The position numbers were made by a program, and so were the translations under genes. Below the pieces are notes generated by a model that worked only from the letters and a program-made list of their open reading frames with translations, searched no databases and was not told the origin of the DNA. Below, in pieces: positions 1,833 through 56,162 of a DNA stretch of 64,000 nucleotides. The DNA is from an uncultured cyanobacterium (GTDB taxonomy: Bacteria; Cyanobacteriota; Vampirovibrionia; Vampirovibrionales; JAGQHJ01): the NCBI GenBank assembly GCA_937922745.1, contig CALAJO010000006.1:8095-72094 (forward strand), read 5' to 3'. Numbering within the stretch: position 1 is the stretch's first letter; the number at the start of each line of letters is the position of its first letter.

Positions 1833-3758
1833 ATGCAGATCCGTCTCAATCCCGTGATGTTTCGTTCTCACATCCAAGGCACAGCACACACCAAAGCCAT
1901 AAGAGCCTCGTTCCCACCCTTGGGGGCAGACACCGTACACTTTGGACAAGGTGCGGATATATCAAGGGCTTTCCGCTATACTCCGGACGAGGAAAAAGTA
2001 ATCGCACTATTTCACCCCGGTCTCGGCTTACAGATTGGATCCATAGAACGAATACTTCCCTATCTCCCCAAAACAATTGCCGCCAAGGTTTGCCTGGAGC
2101 TTTTAAAGCCCGGTATGGCCGATGAGAAAGTAAAGGTTGCCCTAGCCGAGCATCTGGGCCAAGTTCGAGGCCAATACAATATCGATGGCATTATAAGAGT
2201 GATGACCGCTCCTGATCAGCCATTTGAAGTGCGGTTAAAAACGGCCAGCAAGGCTAATTTGATTCGGGATCCCGATTTTTATCTACAAACAGTCAGACTT
2301 TACTATGATTTGCAACCACAAAAAGTATGGTTTGGGCCTGAGGAAAGATCTGTATTCTTTGCAAGCAAGAGCCGTCCTCAATATGTCACGTTGGCGCAGA
2401 TGAGTGAGATCCTGGATTATCTTGTATATGATGAAAAGGTCCAGACTGCTGAAAAACATCAACTTGCAGCAGTGAAAGAAATTGCAGGTTTATTACCTGC
2501 ATACCCGGATAAGTTTTATCACTATGCTTCAGCATTAGCTGCTCATCCTGAAAAAAGCGTTCAACTTGCAGTTGTAAATGAATTATCCTGTTATAAATCT
2601 GCTGCTGAAGATGATCCTCAAAGCCTCCAAATGGTCGATGATCTGATTGTCTCACTCGCTACTTCTACAAGTGTTTCTAACGACGTACACGAAGCTGCGT
2701 TGCTGGAATTGGATAATCTTTCCAGCCAAGCCAGGTTGGAACAAGCACTTAGACAGATTACATCGGCCGAACCTAAGAACGTTATCTCTTCACTGGTTCG
2801 ATTTATACCGATGGTAAAACATAAAGGAACTCTCCAGCACCTTATTGGCCTGCTGGAGCCAGCCAAGCTAACTTCTGAAGCGGAGAGACACTATGCCAGC
2901 ATCGCTGTAACCATCCCCGATCGATCGCTCAGGCTAAAGGTTATCAGGCAATTGGCAAATAGTACAACGAAAGCAGCCTGTGATATTCTTGCAAATTCAA
3001 TCATCCACCGACGTGATGATCCTGACCAACCAGCAATGTTAGCCATTCTACAGGGTAAGGATGGTGCGGTATCGCCGCAGATGCAGCAATCTCTGGCAGC
3101 CAAGCTATCGCATCTCGCCCCAAACATACCCGACAGGCCTGCTCAAGGCCAATTCCTGGTGGTTATATTTAATAAATTACAGCAATCCCCCGCAGATATT
3201 GCAGCATTAGAAGCTGAGTTGCGTGAGTTACAGCTGAGTGTTCCGGAAGAAACAGAAACGGATCGTGACAGAGCTGTACAGCGGGGTTTTTTAAAGGACT
3301 TTGCATTGCGCAAGCTGCAAGAATTGGTGGAAAATAAAAGCTCAGATGATAAAGCTCGGGCCATTGCGGTAAAAACCATTCTATCTAACCTGGACACGCA
3401 ATACGACGATACGCGGGAGGTTTATTACGCTTTTGTAGAGCATTGCCTGAATGATCCCTCCCCCGAAGTTCGGAAACTCATCCCGGACAGCCTGAAAACA
3501 AAGCAGTTAAACGCAATCGATAGTCCACAATGCAAGCGGATCGTCACTCGTCTTCTAGCCGATAAGGCTGAGCCTGTTGCCCGGGAATCGTTGGACAAAC
3601 TCTGGCACTTCTTTCCTGAGGAGGAGCTGTTTGAGGCGGAATTGCACAGAATTTTTGTTAATGATCAAGAAATCCTACCTGTTATTAGGCAAAAAGCTTT
3701 TGGATGGTTAGTTCACCGTGTTTGGTCTCGAGAAAACAAACAAGCTAACTCGGTTTAG
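1833..3758 (+). CDS. HEAT/ARM-like repeat protein of unknown function, paralog A (641 aa); lower GC than its flanks
   Basis: Long uninterrupted ORF with repeated alpha-helical HEAT-like motifs such as DDTREVYYAFVEHCLNDPSPEVRKLIPDSL. Its N- and C-terminal ends resemble those of the downstream paralog. Confidence 0.6.
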   Translation: MQIRLNPVMFRSHIQGTAHTKAIRASFPPLGADTVHFGQGADISRAFRYTPDEEKVIALFHPGLGLQIGSIERILPYLPKTIAAKVCLELLKPGMADEKVKVALAEHLGQVRGQYNIDGIIRVMTAPDQPFEVRLKTASKANLIRDPDFYLQTVRLYYDLQPQKVWFGPEERSVFFASKSRPQYVTLAQMSEILDYLVYDEKVQTAEKHQLAAVKEIAGLLPAYPDKFYHYASALAAHPEKSVQLAVVNELSCYKSAAEDDPQSLQMVDDLIVSLATSTSVSNDVHEAALLELDNLSSQARLEQALRQITSAEPKNVISSLVRFIPMVKHKGTLQHLIGLLEPAKLTSEAERHYASIAVTIPDRSLRLKVIRQLANSTTKAACDILANSIIHRRDDPDQPAMLAILQGKDGAVSPQMQQSLAAKLSHLAPNIPDRPAQGQFLVVIFNKLQQSPADIAALEAELRELQLSVPEETETDRDRAVQRGFLKDFALRKLQELVENKSSDDKARAIAVKTILSNLDTQYDDTREVYYAFVEHCLNDPSPEVRKLIPDSLKTKQLNAIDSPQCKRIVTRLLADKAEPVARESLDKLWHFFPEEELFEAELHRIFVNDQEILPVIRQKAFGWLVHRVWSRENKQANSV

Positions 3759-4123: not shown

Positions 4124-6040
4124 ATGCAGATCCGTTTCAATCCGGCGGCGGTTGCTCGTTCTCACTTCCAAGGCGTGCATGCCAAAACCGTAAGGGCCTC
4201 GTTCCCACCCTTGGGATTAGATACCGTGCATTTTGGCCAAACAACTGCCGTAGAGCCACGACATCAAGTTCTGAATGAAGAAGAACAGATGATTTTTCAC
4301 TTTTATCATCAGCTGGATCAGGAACAAAAAGTCACCTTTATCTCGAAAAACCTTGCTTTGCTTCCTCCTGTGCTGCAAGTCGAGATCTGTAAAGGGATTA
4401 TCATTCCGGAAGCGCCTAAGGAGCTGAAGGTGGCCTTGGCAAAAAACTTGGATGATTTTCAACGAGGAACAATGCTAAATGGGCTTCTTCGGGCATTAAT
4501 TCAACCTCAACAACCGCGAGACGTTCGGTTGCATGCAGGTAAACAAGCTGCTGTATCAACCGATCCCGACCTGTTTGTCGCTGCGGCAAAAACATATTAT
4601 GATGTAGAATTTCGTTCCGATGCTAAGGTTTCCTTCTTTTCTCCCTACTATCGCCCTCAATCCGTTACGGTCGATCATATTCGCGAAGTCATTGACCATA
4701 TGATTTTTGGAAAACATTTGGGCAGTTATATCCAACAAAATCGAGTCTGGGCTGCCGAAGAATTGAATTATTTATTGTCGGAACAGCCTGATGAGTTCCT
4801 CCGTTATGGGCTGGAACTTATCTCAGATTCCAATTTTGAAGTCCAAGAGGCCGTTGCAAAGAAAATTGAATTTTGGGGCCACATTACCAAAGGGAATGAA
4901 ACGAGCCAAGAAGCTGTTAACACACTCATCCAAAACTTAGTGGATAATACGTTATCTCCTAAGCCTTCTGCCAAAGCCCGGGAAATTGCGCTACTCAATC
5001 TTAAATTTCTTAAGGATCCTGCGAAACGTGAAAACATAATTGGCAAACTAACCCCAACGGAGTCCGAAGCGGTTATGGTTTCAGTTGCAGACTTTATGCC
5101 AGAACTCAGCCGTCTTAGCACCCAGCAACATCTTGTTCAGCTTTTAACCAGAGATCACTATACGCGTAATGCGTTAATGAAAGTTGTCACGAAGATACCG
5201 GATAAGGAATTACGTTTACAAACCATTCGCATGCTGGCTAAATTATCTATTGATACCAAGCCTATGGTAGAAGCGATTGTCGCTGAACCGCACCATCCCG
5301 ATTATCAGTTATATCTCCAGATCCTTCAAACCACAGAGGGCGAGCATGCCGTTTATGTTCTTACTCAACGGGCTCTTGCAGAAGCTCTGGCTGAGGTAGC
5401 GGTAAATAAAAAGCCGCCCGAAGACGAAGAAGGTAAATGGCTATTGGCCATCATATCAACCGTGGGCCGCTCCGAAGCCGAGATTCACGCCATTGAGGAA
5501 CAATTGCGTGAATTAAGGGAAAGGGCAAGGCAAATTGCCGATACGGATGAGGCCCGTTATGAGCAAGTTAAAAAAGGCTTTATTCGGGATTATGCGATTA
5601 AGGTGCTGCAACAATTAATGAAAAACACCGCCGCTGATTCCATAGCACGCGTTACGGCAACTAAAGCCATTTTAAAGAACCTGGATGTGAAGTATGACGA
5701 TACACGTCAAGTTTACTTTGCCTTTTTGAGAACTTGTCTCGCGGATCAGTCACCTGATATTCGCAAGCTGATAGCGGAAGACTTGGTGAAAAAGAGGCTA
5801 AATGCAGAAGAAGAGCTACGCTGTTCTGAGATTGTCGATCGTCTTCTGGGTGACAGTAACGAACAGGTTGTGATGAGTACGCTGGACAATATTAATGCAC
5901 TTTACCCTACGGCCAAGACAAGACACCAAGTTTTGTGGCGAACCTTCCAAGATGAAAGCCTGAGTATAAACCTGCGGAGCAAGGCGCTTGAACTTCGTTC
6001 GAAAAGTATACATAAGGAATATCGACAAGTGGCCAGCTAA
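4124..6040 (+). CDS. HEAT/ARM-like repeat protein of unknown function, paralog B (638 aa)
   Basis: N-terminus MQIRFNPAAVARSHFQGVHAKTVRASFPPLGLDTVHFGQ and C-terminus YDDTRQVYFAFLRTCLADQSPDIRKLI parallel those of paralog A. The middle of the protein is diverged. Confidence 0.6.
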   Translation: MQIRFNPAAVARSHFQGVHAKTVRASFPPLGLDTVHFGQTTAVEPRHQVLNEEEQMIFHFYHQLDQEQKVTFISKNLALLPPVLQVEICKGIIIPEAPKELKVALAKNLDDFQRGTMLNGLLRALIQPQQPRDVRLHAGKQAAVSTDPDLFVAAAKTYYDVEFRSDAKVSFFSPYYRPQSVTVDHIREVIDHMIFGKHLGSYIQQNRVWAAEELNYLLSEQPDEFLRYGLELISDSNFEVQEAVAKKIEFWGHITKGNETSQEAVNTLIQNLVDNTLSPKPSAKAREIALLNLKFLKDPAKRENIIGKLTPTESEAVMVSVADFMPELSRLSTQQHLVQLLTRDHYTRNALMKVVTKIPDKELRLQTIRMLAKLSIDTKPMVEAIVAEPHHPDYQLYLQILQTTEGEHAVYVLTQRALAEALAEVAVNKKPPEDEEGKWLLAIISTVGRSEAEIHAIEEQLRELRERARQIADTDEARYEQVKKGFIRDYAIKVLQQLMKNTAADSIARVTATKAILKNLDVKYDDTRQVYFAFLRTCLADQSPDIRKLIAEDLVKKRLNAEEELRCSEIVDRLLGDSNEQVVMSTLDNINALYPTAKTRHQVLWRTFQDESLSINLRSKALELRSKSIHKEYRQVAS

Positions 6041-41480: not shown

Positions 41481-42545
41481 ATGAGTATGAAACCCGCCGC
41501 AGGCGGCCCCAGGCTGCGTCGCCTGAATATGGGGCAAATTTTTATTCTGCTGGCCGTTGTCAGTTTCGTCATCACCATCTTCGTTTTCAAAAGCATGATG
41601 GGTGGCAAACAGGAAGTGAAGGCCGAGAAGGTTGAAACCAGACCATTGGTCGTGGCCGCCCACCAGTTGTTTAGCGGCGAGGTCATTACCCCCGATAGCC
41701 TAAAGGAAATCGAGTGGCCGGTTGAGCATTACCCAAAAAGCAATGTGTACGACAGTGCCGATAAAGTGGTCGGTCGCGTCGTCAAGTCCAACATCTACGC
41801 CGGGCAACCCATTTACCAGCCCAGCCTTGCCGGTGGCGAATCCGACGGCGGCATGCCGGTCGTTATCCCACCGGGCCATCGCGCCATGACGATTCTCGTG
41901 ACCGAGAACAAGGGCGTTGGCGGTTTCGTGAAACCCGGCAACCGTGTGGATATTATTGGAACCTTCAAAATCGAGATTTCCGAAGCCAGCCAGGAAGCAT
42001 TGGCCAAGAAAAACGGCCCGCTGCTGGAAGAAAGCATTGACGTAACCCAAACCATTCTCCAAAACGTGCAGGTTCTGGCCATTGCGCAGGAAATGTACGA
42101 AAAGAAATCGGACATTGAAGCGGGCTTGCAAGGCGATCCGGAGAAGAAGAAGGAAGCCGGCAACAAAAAAGATGCCGACCCGGAAGTGACCAAGGCCAAG
42201 GTGGTTTCCTCCGTAACCCTGGCGGTGACCCCGGAGCAAGCCGAAAAACTGGCCTTCGCCGATACCAAGGGCGACCTGAGACTGGCCCTTCGTCCGGAGA
42301 ACGAGGATGAAGAAAAGCAACTGCTTGGCGCCTTCAGTGCGGATGTGGTTCCTCTGCAAAATATCTTCGAAAAGGTGAACCAGATTGCCAGCGGCTTTGA
42401 CCCCGGTATGTTCAACGATCCCCCGCCAATACCGGAGCCGGTCGGCAAGCAGATGGCGTCTGCCCCGCCCCTTATGCCGGATCCCTCGCCGGGACGAACG
42501 GTTGAAGTGATTGAGGGCGTCAGTAAAAGCTCCGTCGGATTCTAA
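41481..42545 (+). CDS. cpaB: Flp pilus assembly protein CpaB/RcpC (SAF domain)
   Basis: N-terminal TM helix, an SAF-like region (AAHQLFSGEVIT) and the RcpC family core (GHRAMTI ... PGNRVDII). Confidence 0.8.
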   Translation: MSMKPAAGGPRLRRLNMGQIFILLAVVSFVITIFVFKSMMGGKQEVKAEKVETRPLVVAAHQLFSGEVITPDSLKEIEWPVEHYPKSNVYDSADKVVGRVVKSNIYAGQPIYQPSLAGGESDGGMPVVIPPGHRAMTILVTENKGVGGFVKPGNRVDIIGTFKIEISEASQEALAKKNGPLLEESIDVTQTILQNVQVLAIAQEMYEKKSDIEAGLQGDPEKKKEAGNKKDADPEVTKAKVVSSVTLAVTPEQAEKLAFADTKGDLRLALRPENEDEEKQLLGAFSADVVPLQNIFEKVNQIASGFDPGMFNDPPPIPEPVGKQMASAPPLMPDPSPGRTVEVIEGVSKSSVGF

Positions 42546-42553
42546 ACCATCTA

Positions 42554-42588
42554 AGAGAGGTCTCGCAAGAGACCTCTCTTTTCGTTTA
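42554..42588 (+). terminator. Rho-independent terminator after cpaB
   Basis: agagaggtctc-gcaa-gagacctctct followed by tttcgttt. Confidence 0.6.
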
Positions 42589-42596
42589 AAGCCGTT

Positions 42597-42832
42597 TCTC
42601 CCACCCTAGCCCTCTCCCGTGCAACGGGAGAGGGAATAGATCTGGATTGCCGCCACAACTGGGCGCTTTACCTTGAACTTTGTCAAGGCAGATTGATTTG
42701 CAACCTGGCTGATGAAGCCCCTCACCCTAGCCTCGACAGAGCTTGTTGGGTCGTTCTCAGCCAACCAGAGTTCCAAGGTAATAGCGACTGTCCCCTCTCC
42801 CGCTCGCGGGGGAGGGCTAGGGTGGGGGTTAG
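42597..42832. mobile_element. MITE-like element: two ~35 bp imperfect terminal inverted repeats, each a hairpin, flanking ~150 bp
   Basis: Left arm cccaccctagccctctcccgtgcaacgggagaggg. Right arm cccctctcccgctcgcgggggagggctagggtggg, which is the reverse complement of the left arm. An internal partial copy, caccctagcctcgac, lies at ~42720. Confidence 0.45.
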
Positions 42833-43004
42833 CTCCAGTAAACACTACAAAACGAACCGGATCTTATTGGCAAAATTCAACAAACCAGCAAAATCTGAAA
42901 AGAAATAAAATCAACCATTTAGACCCTCTTGATTTGAAAAGAAGAAATTATACTTTAGATATTCCCCAACTGGATACTTATGTTACGAGGAGAGTTGCGT
43001 CCGC

Positions 43005-45461
43005 ATGAATAAACGTTTTATCGCTTTAGCCCTCAGCCTGGTGCTGTCCGGTGGATCGACCGTGACACCGTATGTCTTTGCCGCAACGGCAAAAGCCCCT
43101 GTTCTTAAAACCGCTGTTTCCCAGGATGTCAGCCACGTGGAGCTGACCTTGGGGAAGGCCCAGATCATCAAGCTCAACATGCCCGCAACCCGCGTGTCCA
43201 TCAGCGACCCGGAAGTGGTGGGGATCGTCCTGATCAGCCCGACTGAAGTGCAGTTGATCGGGAAGTCCGTTGGGGTGGCCAACCTGTTGGTATGGGGCGA
43301 AAAAACCGGCGACAACTACCTCACCATCGATCTCTCCGTCCATCGCGACGTCTCCGTGCTGGCGCGTAAGATCCAGATGATTGACCCCGGCATTAACATT
43401 ATGCCCATGGCGGCAGAAGATGCCGTGATCCTCACCGGCGTTGCCGAATCCAACGAAAAAGCGCAACTGGCCTACGATTTAGCCAAAGCCTTCTTTACGG
43501 ATGACAAGGCCGCCGCGGCGGGCGGTGATACCGGCGGTAGTTCCAACTCCCCGGGAAGCGCCACGTTTGCGGGCACATCGGCTAAAATCATCAACCTCAT
43601 CCGCGTGATGGGCCAGCCCTCCACCAAGGCGGAAATGGTCCAGAAGCAGTTGAGCGAAATTGACGCCAATATCAAACTTAACGTCGTTCCCGGCTTTGGC
43701 GGCAAGGAAAAAGCCATCCTCAGCGGACGCGTCAAGAATGCATCTGCGGTGTCCAAGGCGGTGAACCTGACCAGCATCTTCTACGGCGCGCCTGGTATTA
43801 AGGTGATTACCGGCCCTGGCGGCAACCTCATCGGCGAGCAGCGGGAGCAGGCGGCTTCGCAAAGCTTTGCCACCGATGCGGCTGGCGGCGGCCTGGTGGG
43901 CAATATGAACAATAACGTGCTGCAAGGCTCCATCATTACCGATACGTCCGGCAACGTGGTGAGCATGCTGGAAGTGGAGGAGCGCCCACAGGTCAAATGC
44001 ACCATCAAGTTTATGGAAGTCCGCAAGGATAGCGGGTTTAACTATGCCTCCGGGTTCCAGTACAACCAGGGCCAGTTGAGCCTCAACTCCTTTACCGGTT
44101 CAACGGCCGTTCCCGGCACGGAGGCCGCAACCTTCCGCATCCTGGGCAACGACTTGGGCATTGCATTGCAAGGTCTGGTCAGCCAGGGCAAGGCCCGTAT
44201 CCTTGCAGAGCCCACGATTACCGCGATCAGCGGAGAGCCGGCAACCTTCCTGGCCGGCGGGGAGTTCCCAATCCCGGTTTCCAACGTCAATGGGCAGGTC
44301 AACGTGGCCTTTAAGGAGTTTGGTATCCGCCTCAACCTGATGGCGACCGTGACCGATCGCGGCACCATTCATATGCAGGTCAGCCCGGAGGTCAGCTCGC
44401 TGGATCCGTCCGCGGGGATTGTCGTTACCGGCTTTGCCATCCCCGGCCTGAGATCGCGCAAGAGCCAGACCGTGGTGGAGATGCAGAACGGCCAGAACTT
44501 CGTGTTGAGCGGCCTGTATAACGAGGACATGACCAACCAGCTCAACAAGACGCCGCTGCTGGGCCAGATCCCGATTATCGGCGCCCTCTTCAGAAGCCAG
44601 GCGTACCGGAATGCCGAGACCGAGATGGTGATCGTCATCCACCCTGAAATTGTGTCCGATATGAACATGAGCGCCGTCGAGGCCGCCACACGGGCTGCGC
44701 AGGCCGCGCCGCAAAGTATGCCGGTGGTCAGCTCGGTCAATACCATCAGCACCATCCAGCCGATGAAGACCACCGCCGGGTTCCCGGAAGTGACAGATAA
44801 GCCCTCCAGGGACTTGGAGAAAGCCCAGAAGCAGATTGATGCCCAGCAGAAGAACCTGACGGCCAAAGACGTGAAAAAGCAGCAGAAGGAGATGATAAAG
44901 CTCTCCGAGACGCTGGAAAAAGGCAAAGACAGCGTGAAGAAGCATGACAAGCCGGTATCCAACATCTCCGCTGCGGATGATGTGAAGGATGCTTCGACCA
45001 CTGTGCAGAAAGCGGCTGACACGCAAGCGCCCCAGGTTTTCCTGGCGCAGCAGGCCTCGCAGGAAGCCCGTCTGAAAAGCACGGAAGACTTGTCGAAGCT
45101 GATTCGCGAGATGGAAGCCCCGGTGGCGATTGAAGCCCCGGACGATGAGCCGCAGTATGTCCCTAAAACCGAGGCCCCGGCCCAACCGAGCGGCATAAAG
45201 GAAAACCCGCCTGCCGCCGCACCGGCTGCAACCACTAAGCCGGAACCGGCCAAGCAGACGATAAATGAGGCGAATGCTCCGGCATCCGCGCAAAAAAACG
45301 ATAAGCCGGCCATCAAGGCAAAGCAAGTTAAGCGGAACACGCCCCAGCGGGTAAGCCGCCGGTACGTTGCCCCGCAAACCCCTCAGAAAGCGGTTGCCCG
45401 CGAGAGCGTCCAGCAGATTCACAAGGCCGTATCCAGCCTGCTTAGCCTGGAACAGTTCTAG
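43005..45461 (+). CDS. cpaC: Flp pilus secretin CpaC/RcpA with a ~260 aa low-complexity C-terminal extension
   Basis: Signal peptide, BON/pilus-N region, and secretin domain (ILAEPTITAISGEPATFLAGGEFPIP ... TPLLGQIPIIGALFRS). The tail is K/A/P/Q-rich. Confidence 0.85.
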   Translation: MNKRFIALALSLVLSGGSTVTPYVFAATAKAPVLKTAVSQDVSHVELTLGKAQIIKLNMPATRVSISDPEVVGIVLISPTEVQLIGKSVGVANLLVWGEKTGDNYLTIDLSVHRDVSVLARKIQMIDPGINIMPMAAEDAVILTGVAESNEKAQLAYDLAKAFFTDDKAAAAGGDTGGSSNSPGSATFAGTSAKIINLIRVMGQPSTKAEMVQKQLSEIDANIKLNVVPGFGGKEKAILSGRVKNASAVSKAVNLTSIFYGAPGIKVITGPGGNLIGEQREQAASQSFATDAAGGGLVGNMNNNVLQGSIITDTSGNVVSMLEVEERPQVKCTIKFMEVRKDSGFNYASGFQYNQGQLSLNSFTGSTAVPGTEAATFRILGNDLGIALQGLVSQGKARILAEPTITAISGEPATFLAGGEFPIPVSNVNGQVNVAFKEFGIRLNLMATVTDRGTIHMQVSPEVSSLDPSAGIVVTGFAIPGLRSRKSQTVVEMQNGQNFVLSGLYNEDMTNQLNKTPLLGQIPIIGALFRSQAYRNAETEMVIVIHPEIVSDMNMSAVEAATRAAQAAPQSMPVVSSVNTISTIQPMKTTAGFPEVTDKPSRDLEKAQKQIDAQQKNLTAKDVKKQQKEMIKLSETLEKGKDSVKKHDKPVSNISAADDVKDASTTVQKAADTQAPQVFLAQQASQEARLKSTEDLSKLIREMEAPVAIEAPDDEPQYVPKTEAPAQPSGIKENPPAAAPAATTKPEPAKQTINEANAPASAQKNDKPAIKAKQVKRNTPQRVSRRYVAPQTPQKAVARESVQQIHKAVSSLLSLEQF

Positions 45462-55353: not shown

Positions 55354-55598
55354 TCACGCTCTCGCCTGACATTTACCTTTTTATTTTAACGCACCCGGCA
55401 CAAATATTCCGCCCCAGGTTGCGTGGGCCGGGCGGTTTTGATTATGATAGTCGCAACCGCCGAAAGATGCCTGATGGCCTTGCAGGCGGAACCGTTACAA
55501 CCTATCGGGGTGCTTGCCGCAGCAGGCTGAGAGCAGGAAATGCCCGTTCCTGAAACCCGTTGAACCTGATCTGGATAATACCAGCGGAGGGAGACACT

Positions 55599-56162
55599 AT
55601 GTCCATATCCTTTTACCCGGCTTTTTCGCCGCAAGCGATGCAACGTATCGCACCTCCCGGTTATCACGTATCCCAGCCGTTTAGCAGCCTTCATCCTGCA
55701 CCATTTCGGCCTTTAAACAACGGCTTCCATCCTGAGCCGATGGCCGAAGCGTTGCCCAAAACCCAGCCGAAGGCAAAACCTGTCCCGCAAAACCGTATCG
55801 TTGCCTTGTTTCGGAATCCCAAGGCGCAGGAGATGGGCATGTTGGCCTTTACCGCCATTGCCATCCCCGCGCTAAAGACATGGATGCACCTGAAGGCCAA
55901 CCAGCATGCGGGGTTGTCCCTTTCCCAGCGCCGGTTACTGCACCAGCAGGAGTGGATCCGGCAGACGGTCAGCACCGCCTTATGGCTTGGCACCTCCCTG
56001 GCGACCTATGTGCTGCTGGATAACGTCTTCCCCAGCCAGAGCGCCGTGGGCCGCTTCCTTACCAGCAACCTGATCTCCTCGATCCCGGATACCTTTATCC
56101 GCCCGTTTGTCACCGCGCGAATCCTCAAGTTTGTGCTGGCCAACAAGAAGCTGATGCCCTGA
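55599..56162 (+). CDS. Hypothetical membrane protein
   Basis: GGAGGGAG lies 7 nt upstream of the ATG. Hydrophobic segments are present. Confidence 0.4.
   Translation: MSISFYPAFSPQAMQRIAPPGYHVSQPFSSLHPAPFRPLNNGFHPEPMAEALPKTQPKAKPVPQNRIVALFRNPKAQEMGMLAFTAIAIPALKTWMHLKANQHAGLSLSQRRLLHQQEWIRQTVSTALWLGTSLATYVLLDNVFPSQSAVGRFLTSNLISSIPDTFIRPFVTARILKFVLANKKLMP

Follow-up and report, generated by a model that had tools for sequence, protein, structure and literature searches.

A head-to-head pair of BoxC-type repeat units in the cpaB-cpaC spacer of a Vampirovibrionia tad locus

The cpaB-cpaC spacer of the tad locus studied here, which belongs to a Vampirovibrionia MAG, carries a 236-nt element with two inverted arms. 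Judged by their sequence, the arms are two complete units of the known dispersed repeat BoxC in an inverted pair and not the ends of a private element. We favour, with a probability of about 0.7, the reading that a head-to-head inverted BoxC pair with the remnant of a third unit has been gained in this lineage and is carried as a passenger without a dedicated tad role. The repeat family to which the feature belongs has been published before; the host lineage is new.

BoxC is the same as the PIT element (potential intrastrand triplex) and the TM_ECO triplex motif (Holder et al., NAR 2015, PMC4666352). The HPG1/HPG2 G-quadruplex-hairpin-duplex switch is a further name for the BoxC motif (Kaplan et al., NAR 2016, PMC5100583), and BoxC is listed among the known stem-loop repeat families of E. 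coli (PMC2267715). The TM_ECO pattern reads CCCTCNCCC-N3-6-GGGNGAGGG-N3-GGGNGAGGG, with one stem mismatch allowed (PMC4666352). E. coli MG1655 has 23 TM_ECO copies, all of them intergenic and at five sites arranged as inverted pairs, and 3610 copies have been found in 262 proteobacterial genomes (PMC4666352). As a single strand TM_ECO forms a stable triplex in vitro, and in vivo no triplex footprint was seen (PMC4666352). The isolated G-rich strand of the BoxC family adopts an intrastrand triplex in Mg2+ or a G-quadruplex in K+ in vitro (PMC4666352, PMC5100583).

The window, i.e. the whole stretch of DNA analysed, is 64 kb long. Upstream of the element lies cpaB/rcpC for Flp pilus assembly (41481-42545, plus strand; Pfam RcpC 3.1e-29, SAF 3.3e-10) and downstream the cpaC/rcpA secretin gene (43005-45461, plus strand; Pfam Secretin 3.8e-41, T2SS-T3SS_pil_N 1.6e-15). 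The 459-nt spacer between them consists of a terminator-like part (42546-42596), the element itself (42597-42832, GC 0.58) and a leader of cpaC (42833-43004). The terminator-like hairpin (42553-42590, plus strand), which was found by a terminator scan, is made up of a 12-bp stem (42553-42580; an inverted repeat with 100% complementarity) with a 4-nt loop, followed by TTTTCGTTT. The leader is 172 nt long, AT-rich (GC 0.36) and in the orientation of cpaC (plus strand), with two promoter-like sites at 42867-42894 and 42934-42963. The element is 3' of the sole terminator-like site of the spacer and 5' of the promoter-like sites, and its predicted position between the cpaB terminator and cpaC is borne out. 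The ORFs that overlap the element, including a spurious minus-strand ORF (42606-42845), are without a Pfam match, and no gene was called over it on the matching Logan contigs. Several observations concern the surroundings. The secretin CpaC is a long protein in this lineage (744-882 aa in the window and in loci L123-L129); in the window protein the Pfam secretin domain stops near residue 550 and about 270 C-terminal residues are unmatched. The sole Rfam match in the window is a TPP riboswitch aptamer at 55496-55610 on the plus strand, which exceeds the gathering score of RF00059 with 71.5 bits. Between about 2000 and 18000 the GC content is 0.45-0.50, compared to 0.53-0.60 in the remainder; this stretch holds the ORFs 1833-3758 (HEAT-repeat match only) and 4124-6040 (no Pfam match) as well as the sigma-70 gene.

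The original prediction spoke of two arms of about 35 bp that are reverse complements of each other, each of them a GC-rich hairpin, enclosing a third partial copy, and this anatomy was recovered throughout. The segments 42600-42619 and 42807-42826 are complementary at 95% over 20 nt, and in the alignment the likeness of the arms extends to about 35 nt with 4-5 differences, mostly in the hairpin loop. Each arm consists of a GC-rich hairpin and a C-rich tail. The left unit (42598-42634, minus strand), recognised by a relaxed family pattern, its hairpin and a G-quadruplex motif, has a perfect 11-bp stem (42610-42620 / 42624-42634; DNA fold -13.7 kcal/mol, z -5.0). Its minus-strand sequence is CCCTCTCCC-GTTGCAC-GGGAGAGGG-CTA-GGGTGGGAG. 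It is a degenerate copy: its loop measures 7 nt (or 5 nt with an extra G-C pair assigned to the stem), and its third block contains two mismatches. The right unit (42793-42828, plus strand), recognised by the TM_ECO pattern and by BLAST, is CCCTCTCCC-GCTCGC-GGGGGAGGG-CTA-GGGTGGGGG, with a 10-bp stem that includes one T.G mismatch; it fits the published TM_ECO pattern with a single mismatch, in the third block. Both units read as the family plan of a C-rich block, a short loop, a complementary G-rich block that closes the hairpin, 3 nt and a second, mirror-type G-rich block. Between them is a gap of 158 nt. It contains the partial third unit CCCCTCACCCTAGCC (42718-42732, plus-strand coordinates), 15 nt that match the 5' half of the family consensus; this remnant comprises tail, loop and stem start, is oriented like the left unit and ends before the hairpin. 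The gap also contains a further inverted repeat of about 20 nt, detected by local alignment of CGCTTTACCTTGAACTTTG (42664-42682, plus strand) with the reverse complement of CAGAGTTCCAAGGTAATAGCG (42766-42786, plus strand), the score of which was equalled in 3 of 2000 shuffles.

The 64-kb window holds this one pair only: the 20-mer occurs twice at up to 3 mismatches, compared to 0.00 occurrences expected from 100 shuffles. The G-rich strands of both arms have four G3+ tracts each and supply two of the G-quadruplex motifs, of which the 64 kb hold only three. The complete element of 236 nt, when folded as RNA, is predicted to form one extended hairpin (-129.6 kcal/mol, z -9.1), which answers the call for RNA folding made along with the prediction. 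A C in the third block that is rare in the family (5 of the 127 units among the matches listed) is found in both window arms, and the arms therefore appear to be sister copies of recent common origin.

A chance likeness or an assembly artefact, for instance a palindromic chimera, is highly improbable. In favour of an artefact, hairpins may cause mis-joins when short reads are assembled, and both Logan contigs have an end within the right arm. Against this, the shuffles predict zero chance matches, both arms match an independently known family, and two Logan contigs assembled separately from run ERR9287890 agree with the window at 100% identity over the region. One of them runs from the left arm through the interior to halfway into the right arm, and the second covers what follows; the end of the former (L001) and the start of the latter (L002) overlap by 20 nt inside the right-arm hairpin (window 42800-42819). 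The unit may be repeated in the sample, which would explain the break, or coverage and graph trouble at a GC-rich hairpin may have caused it. Anatomy, shuffle test, fold and the identical independent contigs together confirm the inverted-repeat observation.

Membership in the BoxC family is also borne out by comparison with E. coli. A blastn search with 42590-42840 against 5426 complete E. coli genomes matched 1508 of them, at 80-86% identity over about 43 nt, and all matches were chromosomal, with none under an annotated feature. The best of these is the adk-hemH intergenic copy, the sequence of which is given in Table 1 of PMC4666352. The closest copies overall are on Azospirillum replicons, at 91% identity to the right arm. 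The window units share with BoxC of E. coli the three-block sequence CCCTCTCCC, loop, GGGAGAGGG, 3 nt and a GGGTGAGGG-like block, as well as the four G3 tracts of the G-rich strands and the inverted pairing on opposite strands; the window pair is intergenic, as are all E. coli copies. They differ in that the host is a Vampirovibrionia MAG and not a proteobacterium, that the second loop is CTA instead of TTA or CCG, and that the third block is degenerate (GGGTGGGGG, GGGTGGGAG), unlike in E. coli BoxC. The spacing of the pair is 158 nt in contrast to 17-60 nt in E. coli, as reckoned from Table 1 of PMC4666352. Other identities offered by Rfam were discarded. Chlorobi-1 RNA (RF01696) reached 19.3 bits against a gathering threshold of 50 bits, a score that rests on the GC hairpin and a GGGGG run; the weak engA and TCV_Pr matches are GC-hairpin noise, and no family reaches its threshold at the element.

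One genome per species was scanned with the pattern CCTARCCCTCTCCC-N4-10-GGGAGAGGG, which returned at least 120 loci. According to record titles, the unit occurs in more than 15 phyla among the matches listed, a spread beyond the 262 proteobacterial genomes of 2015 (e.g. L011, L034, L036, L090, L097, L109). Listed hosts include Alpha-, Beta- and Gammaproteobacteria, Dehalococcoidia (closed MAG chromosomes among them), Cyanobacteria (Leptolyngbya PCC 6406), Planctomycetota (a Bremerella isolate), Verrucomicrobiota, Nitrospiria, Elusimicrobiota, Atribacterota, Patescibacteria and other CPR lineages, Dormibacteraeota and others. The consensus of the 127 units listed, cCCCTCACCCTA(A/G)CCCTCTCCC-loop-GGGAGAGGG(G/A)A, has sharp borders, and the 5' block CCCTC(A/T)C (third block), although outside the scan pattern, is present in 113 of them. 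With a relaxed pattern, 195 units were counted in the 120 loci listed. Units occur singly or as inverted pairs in other genomes; an inverted pair is the usual form of the family, because 57 of 63 neighbouring pairs in the loci listed are inverted (29 of one polarity, 28 of the other) and 6 direct. Gaps within inverted pairs are mostly 8-100 nt, with a few of up to 478 nt in these 120 loci, and the 158 nt of the window lie at the long end of the range. Other arrangements were seen as well: three direct units in tandem, one every 46 nt, in a Dormibacteraeota MAG (L097, 1234-1360), a cluster of eight units of mostly alternating orientation in a Dehalococcoidia chromosome (L050, 1391-2060), and some single hairpins with tails on both sides that make one longer palindrome (L041, L069, L079). 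Matches in plasmid records are nearly all on large replicons of Azospirillum, Sinorhizobium and Rhizobium, the chromids and megaplasmids of which carry up to 34 copies per replicon. A phage origin was rejected, with no match in 50,697 records of cultured phage genomes; the exact motif is found in 112 IMG/VR viral contigs.

The third block seems to co-vary with the hairpin. The bases at position 4 of the first G-block and position 6 of the second were compared in 76 units outside the scan pattern: 54 units are A/A, 15 are G/G (5 of these being poly-G artefacts) and 3 are discordant (A/G or G/A), and the further 4 have other bases (3 T/G, 1 A/C). In most cases the C-block base in Watson-Crick pairing changes along with them, T/A/A becoming C/G/G (units in L158, L112, L056, L226, L122 and L077). 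This mirror-symmetric three-way covariation, drawn from few independent lineages, is what would be expected of an antiparallel purine-motif triplex (A.A-T to G.G-C); an alternative Watson-Crick hairpin does not predict it. The right arm of the window (42793-42828) has the intermediate state T/G/G, and its G/G at positions S2-4 and S3-6 would be compatible with a G.G-C triad.

The feature had been predicted to be MITE-like, possibly a non-autonomous transposable element. As a true MITE, the 236-nt composite would be mobile as one unit, and a transposase from a gene elsewhere in the genome would bind its arms as terminal inverted repeats. Like Correia/NEMIS, RUP and ERIC/IRU, MITEs that are non-coding, 100-300 nt in length, bounded by terminal inverted repeats, able to form a long RNA hairpin and located in intergenic regions or within operons, the element is of usual MITE size (236 nt), has terminal inverted repeats (20 nt at 95%, reaching about 35 nt) and shows further inverted symmetry inside the arms (42664-42682 / 42766-42786). 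It is missing from related loci, and the Logan contigs break in the right arm as they would for sequence repeated elsewhere in the sample. It differs from these MITEs in having no target-site duplication and, in the metagenome scan, no interior in common with other copies, and each of its arms is an independent unit. Direct repeats at the flanks reach at most 4 nt, which 76% of random position pairs equal or exceed, and no target-site duplication thus rises above chance. Each arm is an entire repeat unit, and units of this family are mostly single or paired, with variable spacing and unrelated interiors. A metagenome scan for the unit plus the interior core did not yield a second copy of the 236-nt composite; it returned one locus, L126, which has only about 15 nt in common with the window beside the hairpin. 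L126 (1487-1609) is an inverted pair with a 29-nt spacer between unrelated genes; CAAGGTAAWAGCGAC next to its hairpin is shared with the window, and its palindrome continues outward for about 15 nt from each unit (GTAACT..ACCTG / CAGGT..AGTTAC). This likeness suggests a slightly longer sub-family unit and not a mobile 236-nt composite. Finally, the 8-kb loci around the 120 units listed have no recurrent transposase family; an all-against-all BLAST of their 1701 ORFs returned only common families such as ABC-F ATPases and acyl-CoA dehydrogenases. We hold the strict MITE to be quite unlikely. The idea of a non-autonomous repeat nevertheless pointed in the right direction, since the units form a dispersed intergenic family and relatives lack the element; what did not stand is the MITE in the strict sense, given no target-site duplication above chance, no second composite in the metagenome scan and no recurrent transposase around the units listed.

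REP/BIME sequences and REPINs, too, resemble the pair. REPs are short, GC-rich, imperfect palindromes, intergenic, dispersed and usually of alternating orientation, and a doublet can fold as a long hairpin; their BIME clusters recall the inverted pairing that is usual for BoxC. They are species-specific; the 5' end of the REP palindrome carries a conserved GTAG (or CGTC) tag with a cognate RAYT, and REPINs are REP doublets mobilised by RAYT transposases. BoxC units, by contrast, are nearly identical across phyla and have the additional mirror-repeat third block that REPs lack. All 127 units listed have CTAG or CTAA at the tag position, which is partly imposed by the scan pattern, and no RAYT-like gene was seen among the 1701 ORFs around the 120 units listed. 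REP, BIME or REPIN identity was rejected, there being no GTAG-type tag and no recurrent transposase nearby.

The tad locus itself was compared with its relatives. The primary-type sigma factor of the window has its best named homologue in Vampirovibrio chlorellavorus (80% identity), followed by Vampirovibrionales and Melainabacteria MAGs, and the nearest named CpaB homologues are likewise of Vampirovibrionia type; the source is accordingly a Vampirovibrionia MAG, in which the window lies on a 105-kb contig. Eight related tad loci have the same gene order, with CpaB 50-58% identical and a cpaB-cpaC spacer of 89-131 nt, compared to 459 nt in the window. In the six for which DNA was available (88 kb), the spacer is AT-rich and no BoxC unit was found anywhere in the locus. 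With spacers of this length and relatives without the unit, the element was probably gained in the window lineage. The comparison of spacers had been proposed along with the prediction; the spacer is not conserved, and the mobile-element idea is not refuted by it. Gain of the pair in the window lineage would explain much of the growth of the spacer from about 100 to 459 nt. The nearest relatives available are so distant (CpaB at most 58%) that their lack of the element neither dates the gain nor defines an empty site. The composition of the cpaC leader is similar to that of the entire 89-131 nt spacer of the relatives. Element, terminator-like hairpin and longer leader are specific to the lineage, because they are absent from the related loci, and the extra hairpin and longer leader could be a functional reorganisation of the operon.

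A rival reading is that the element is a dedicated regulatory structure that uncouples expression of flp-tadE-cpaB from that of cpaC-tadC. Its long hairpin, or the hairpin, triplex or G-quadruplex of the arms, would act as a roadblock, be processed by RNase III or protect the 3' ends of read-through transcripts, the last being a role of REP elements in some operons of E. coli. The stability of the predicted RNA hairpin (-129.6 kcal/mol, z -9.1) argues for such a role, as do the site within an operon that is contiguous in relatives, the gain of a terminator-like hairpin and promoter-like sites in the same spacer, and the presence in the element of two of the three G-quadruplex motifs of the 64 kb. 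Yet the stability of the hairpin is a mere result of two GC-rich repeat copies, the same units adjoin unrelated genes in more than 15 phyla among the matches listed, and the structure is missing from all related tad loci. Moreover, no T-run follows either arm, the sequences there being AATAGATC and TTAGCTCC. Members of the family in E. coli are without promoter or terminator activity, according to earlier work cited in PMC4666352, and TM_ECO copies show no tie to gene function (PMC4666352); these negative function tests were done in E. coli, an organism other than the host. On balance a dedicated regulatory structure is unlikely. The more specific proposal of a transcription attenuator or insulator found no support: an intrinsic terminator or attenuator was rejected, the scan reporting only the separate hairpin at 42553-42580 and the arms having no T-run, and the E. 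coli members are negative.

Two bolder readings, which we regard together as rather improbable, deserve mention. Either the tad operon is split by a module peculiar to this lineage and made up of pair, terminator-like hairpin and leader, in which the hairpin, triplex or G-quadruplex of an arm would set read-through or RNase III processing toward cpaC, or a repeat of about 40 nt has recently arrived across phyla in a lineage otherwise without it. If the latter were true, the locus would be one for working out how BoxC spreads.

We therefore return to the passenger reading. The pair would have lodged in the gap with the terminator-like hairpin of cpaB on one side and the promoter-like sites of cpaC on the other. 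We infer, without direct demonstration, that it is a passenger with generic effects only, and likewise that it persists because its site breaks no gene and no promoter. A very stable hairpin would form in read-through RNA. In single-stranded DNA, the G-rich strands might adopt a hairpin, triplex or G-quadruplex and may destabilise the locus. Local rearrangement around TM_ECO exceeds that at control sites (PMC4666352), and non-B structures may go together with local sequence instability in E. coli. The extra inverted symmetry and the fold at z -9 are such that a selected RNA or DNA structure would look alike.

For the locus, a long, GC-rich and strongly folding spacer in a tad operon is explained without a new regulator, and caution is called for, as its hairpins are not to be taken for an attenuator. 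The family is of more interest: a non-coding sequence of about 40 nt with sharp borders is near-identical in Proteobacteria, Chloroflexota, Cyanobacteriota, Planctomycetota, CPR and others. To the question of its function and spread, the probable gain of a copy by predatory cyanobacteria of which few have been sampled contributes a further case.
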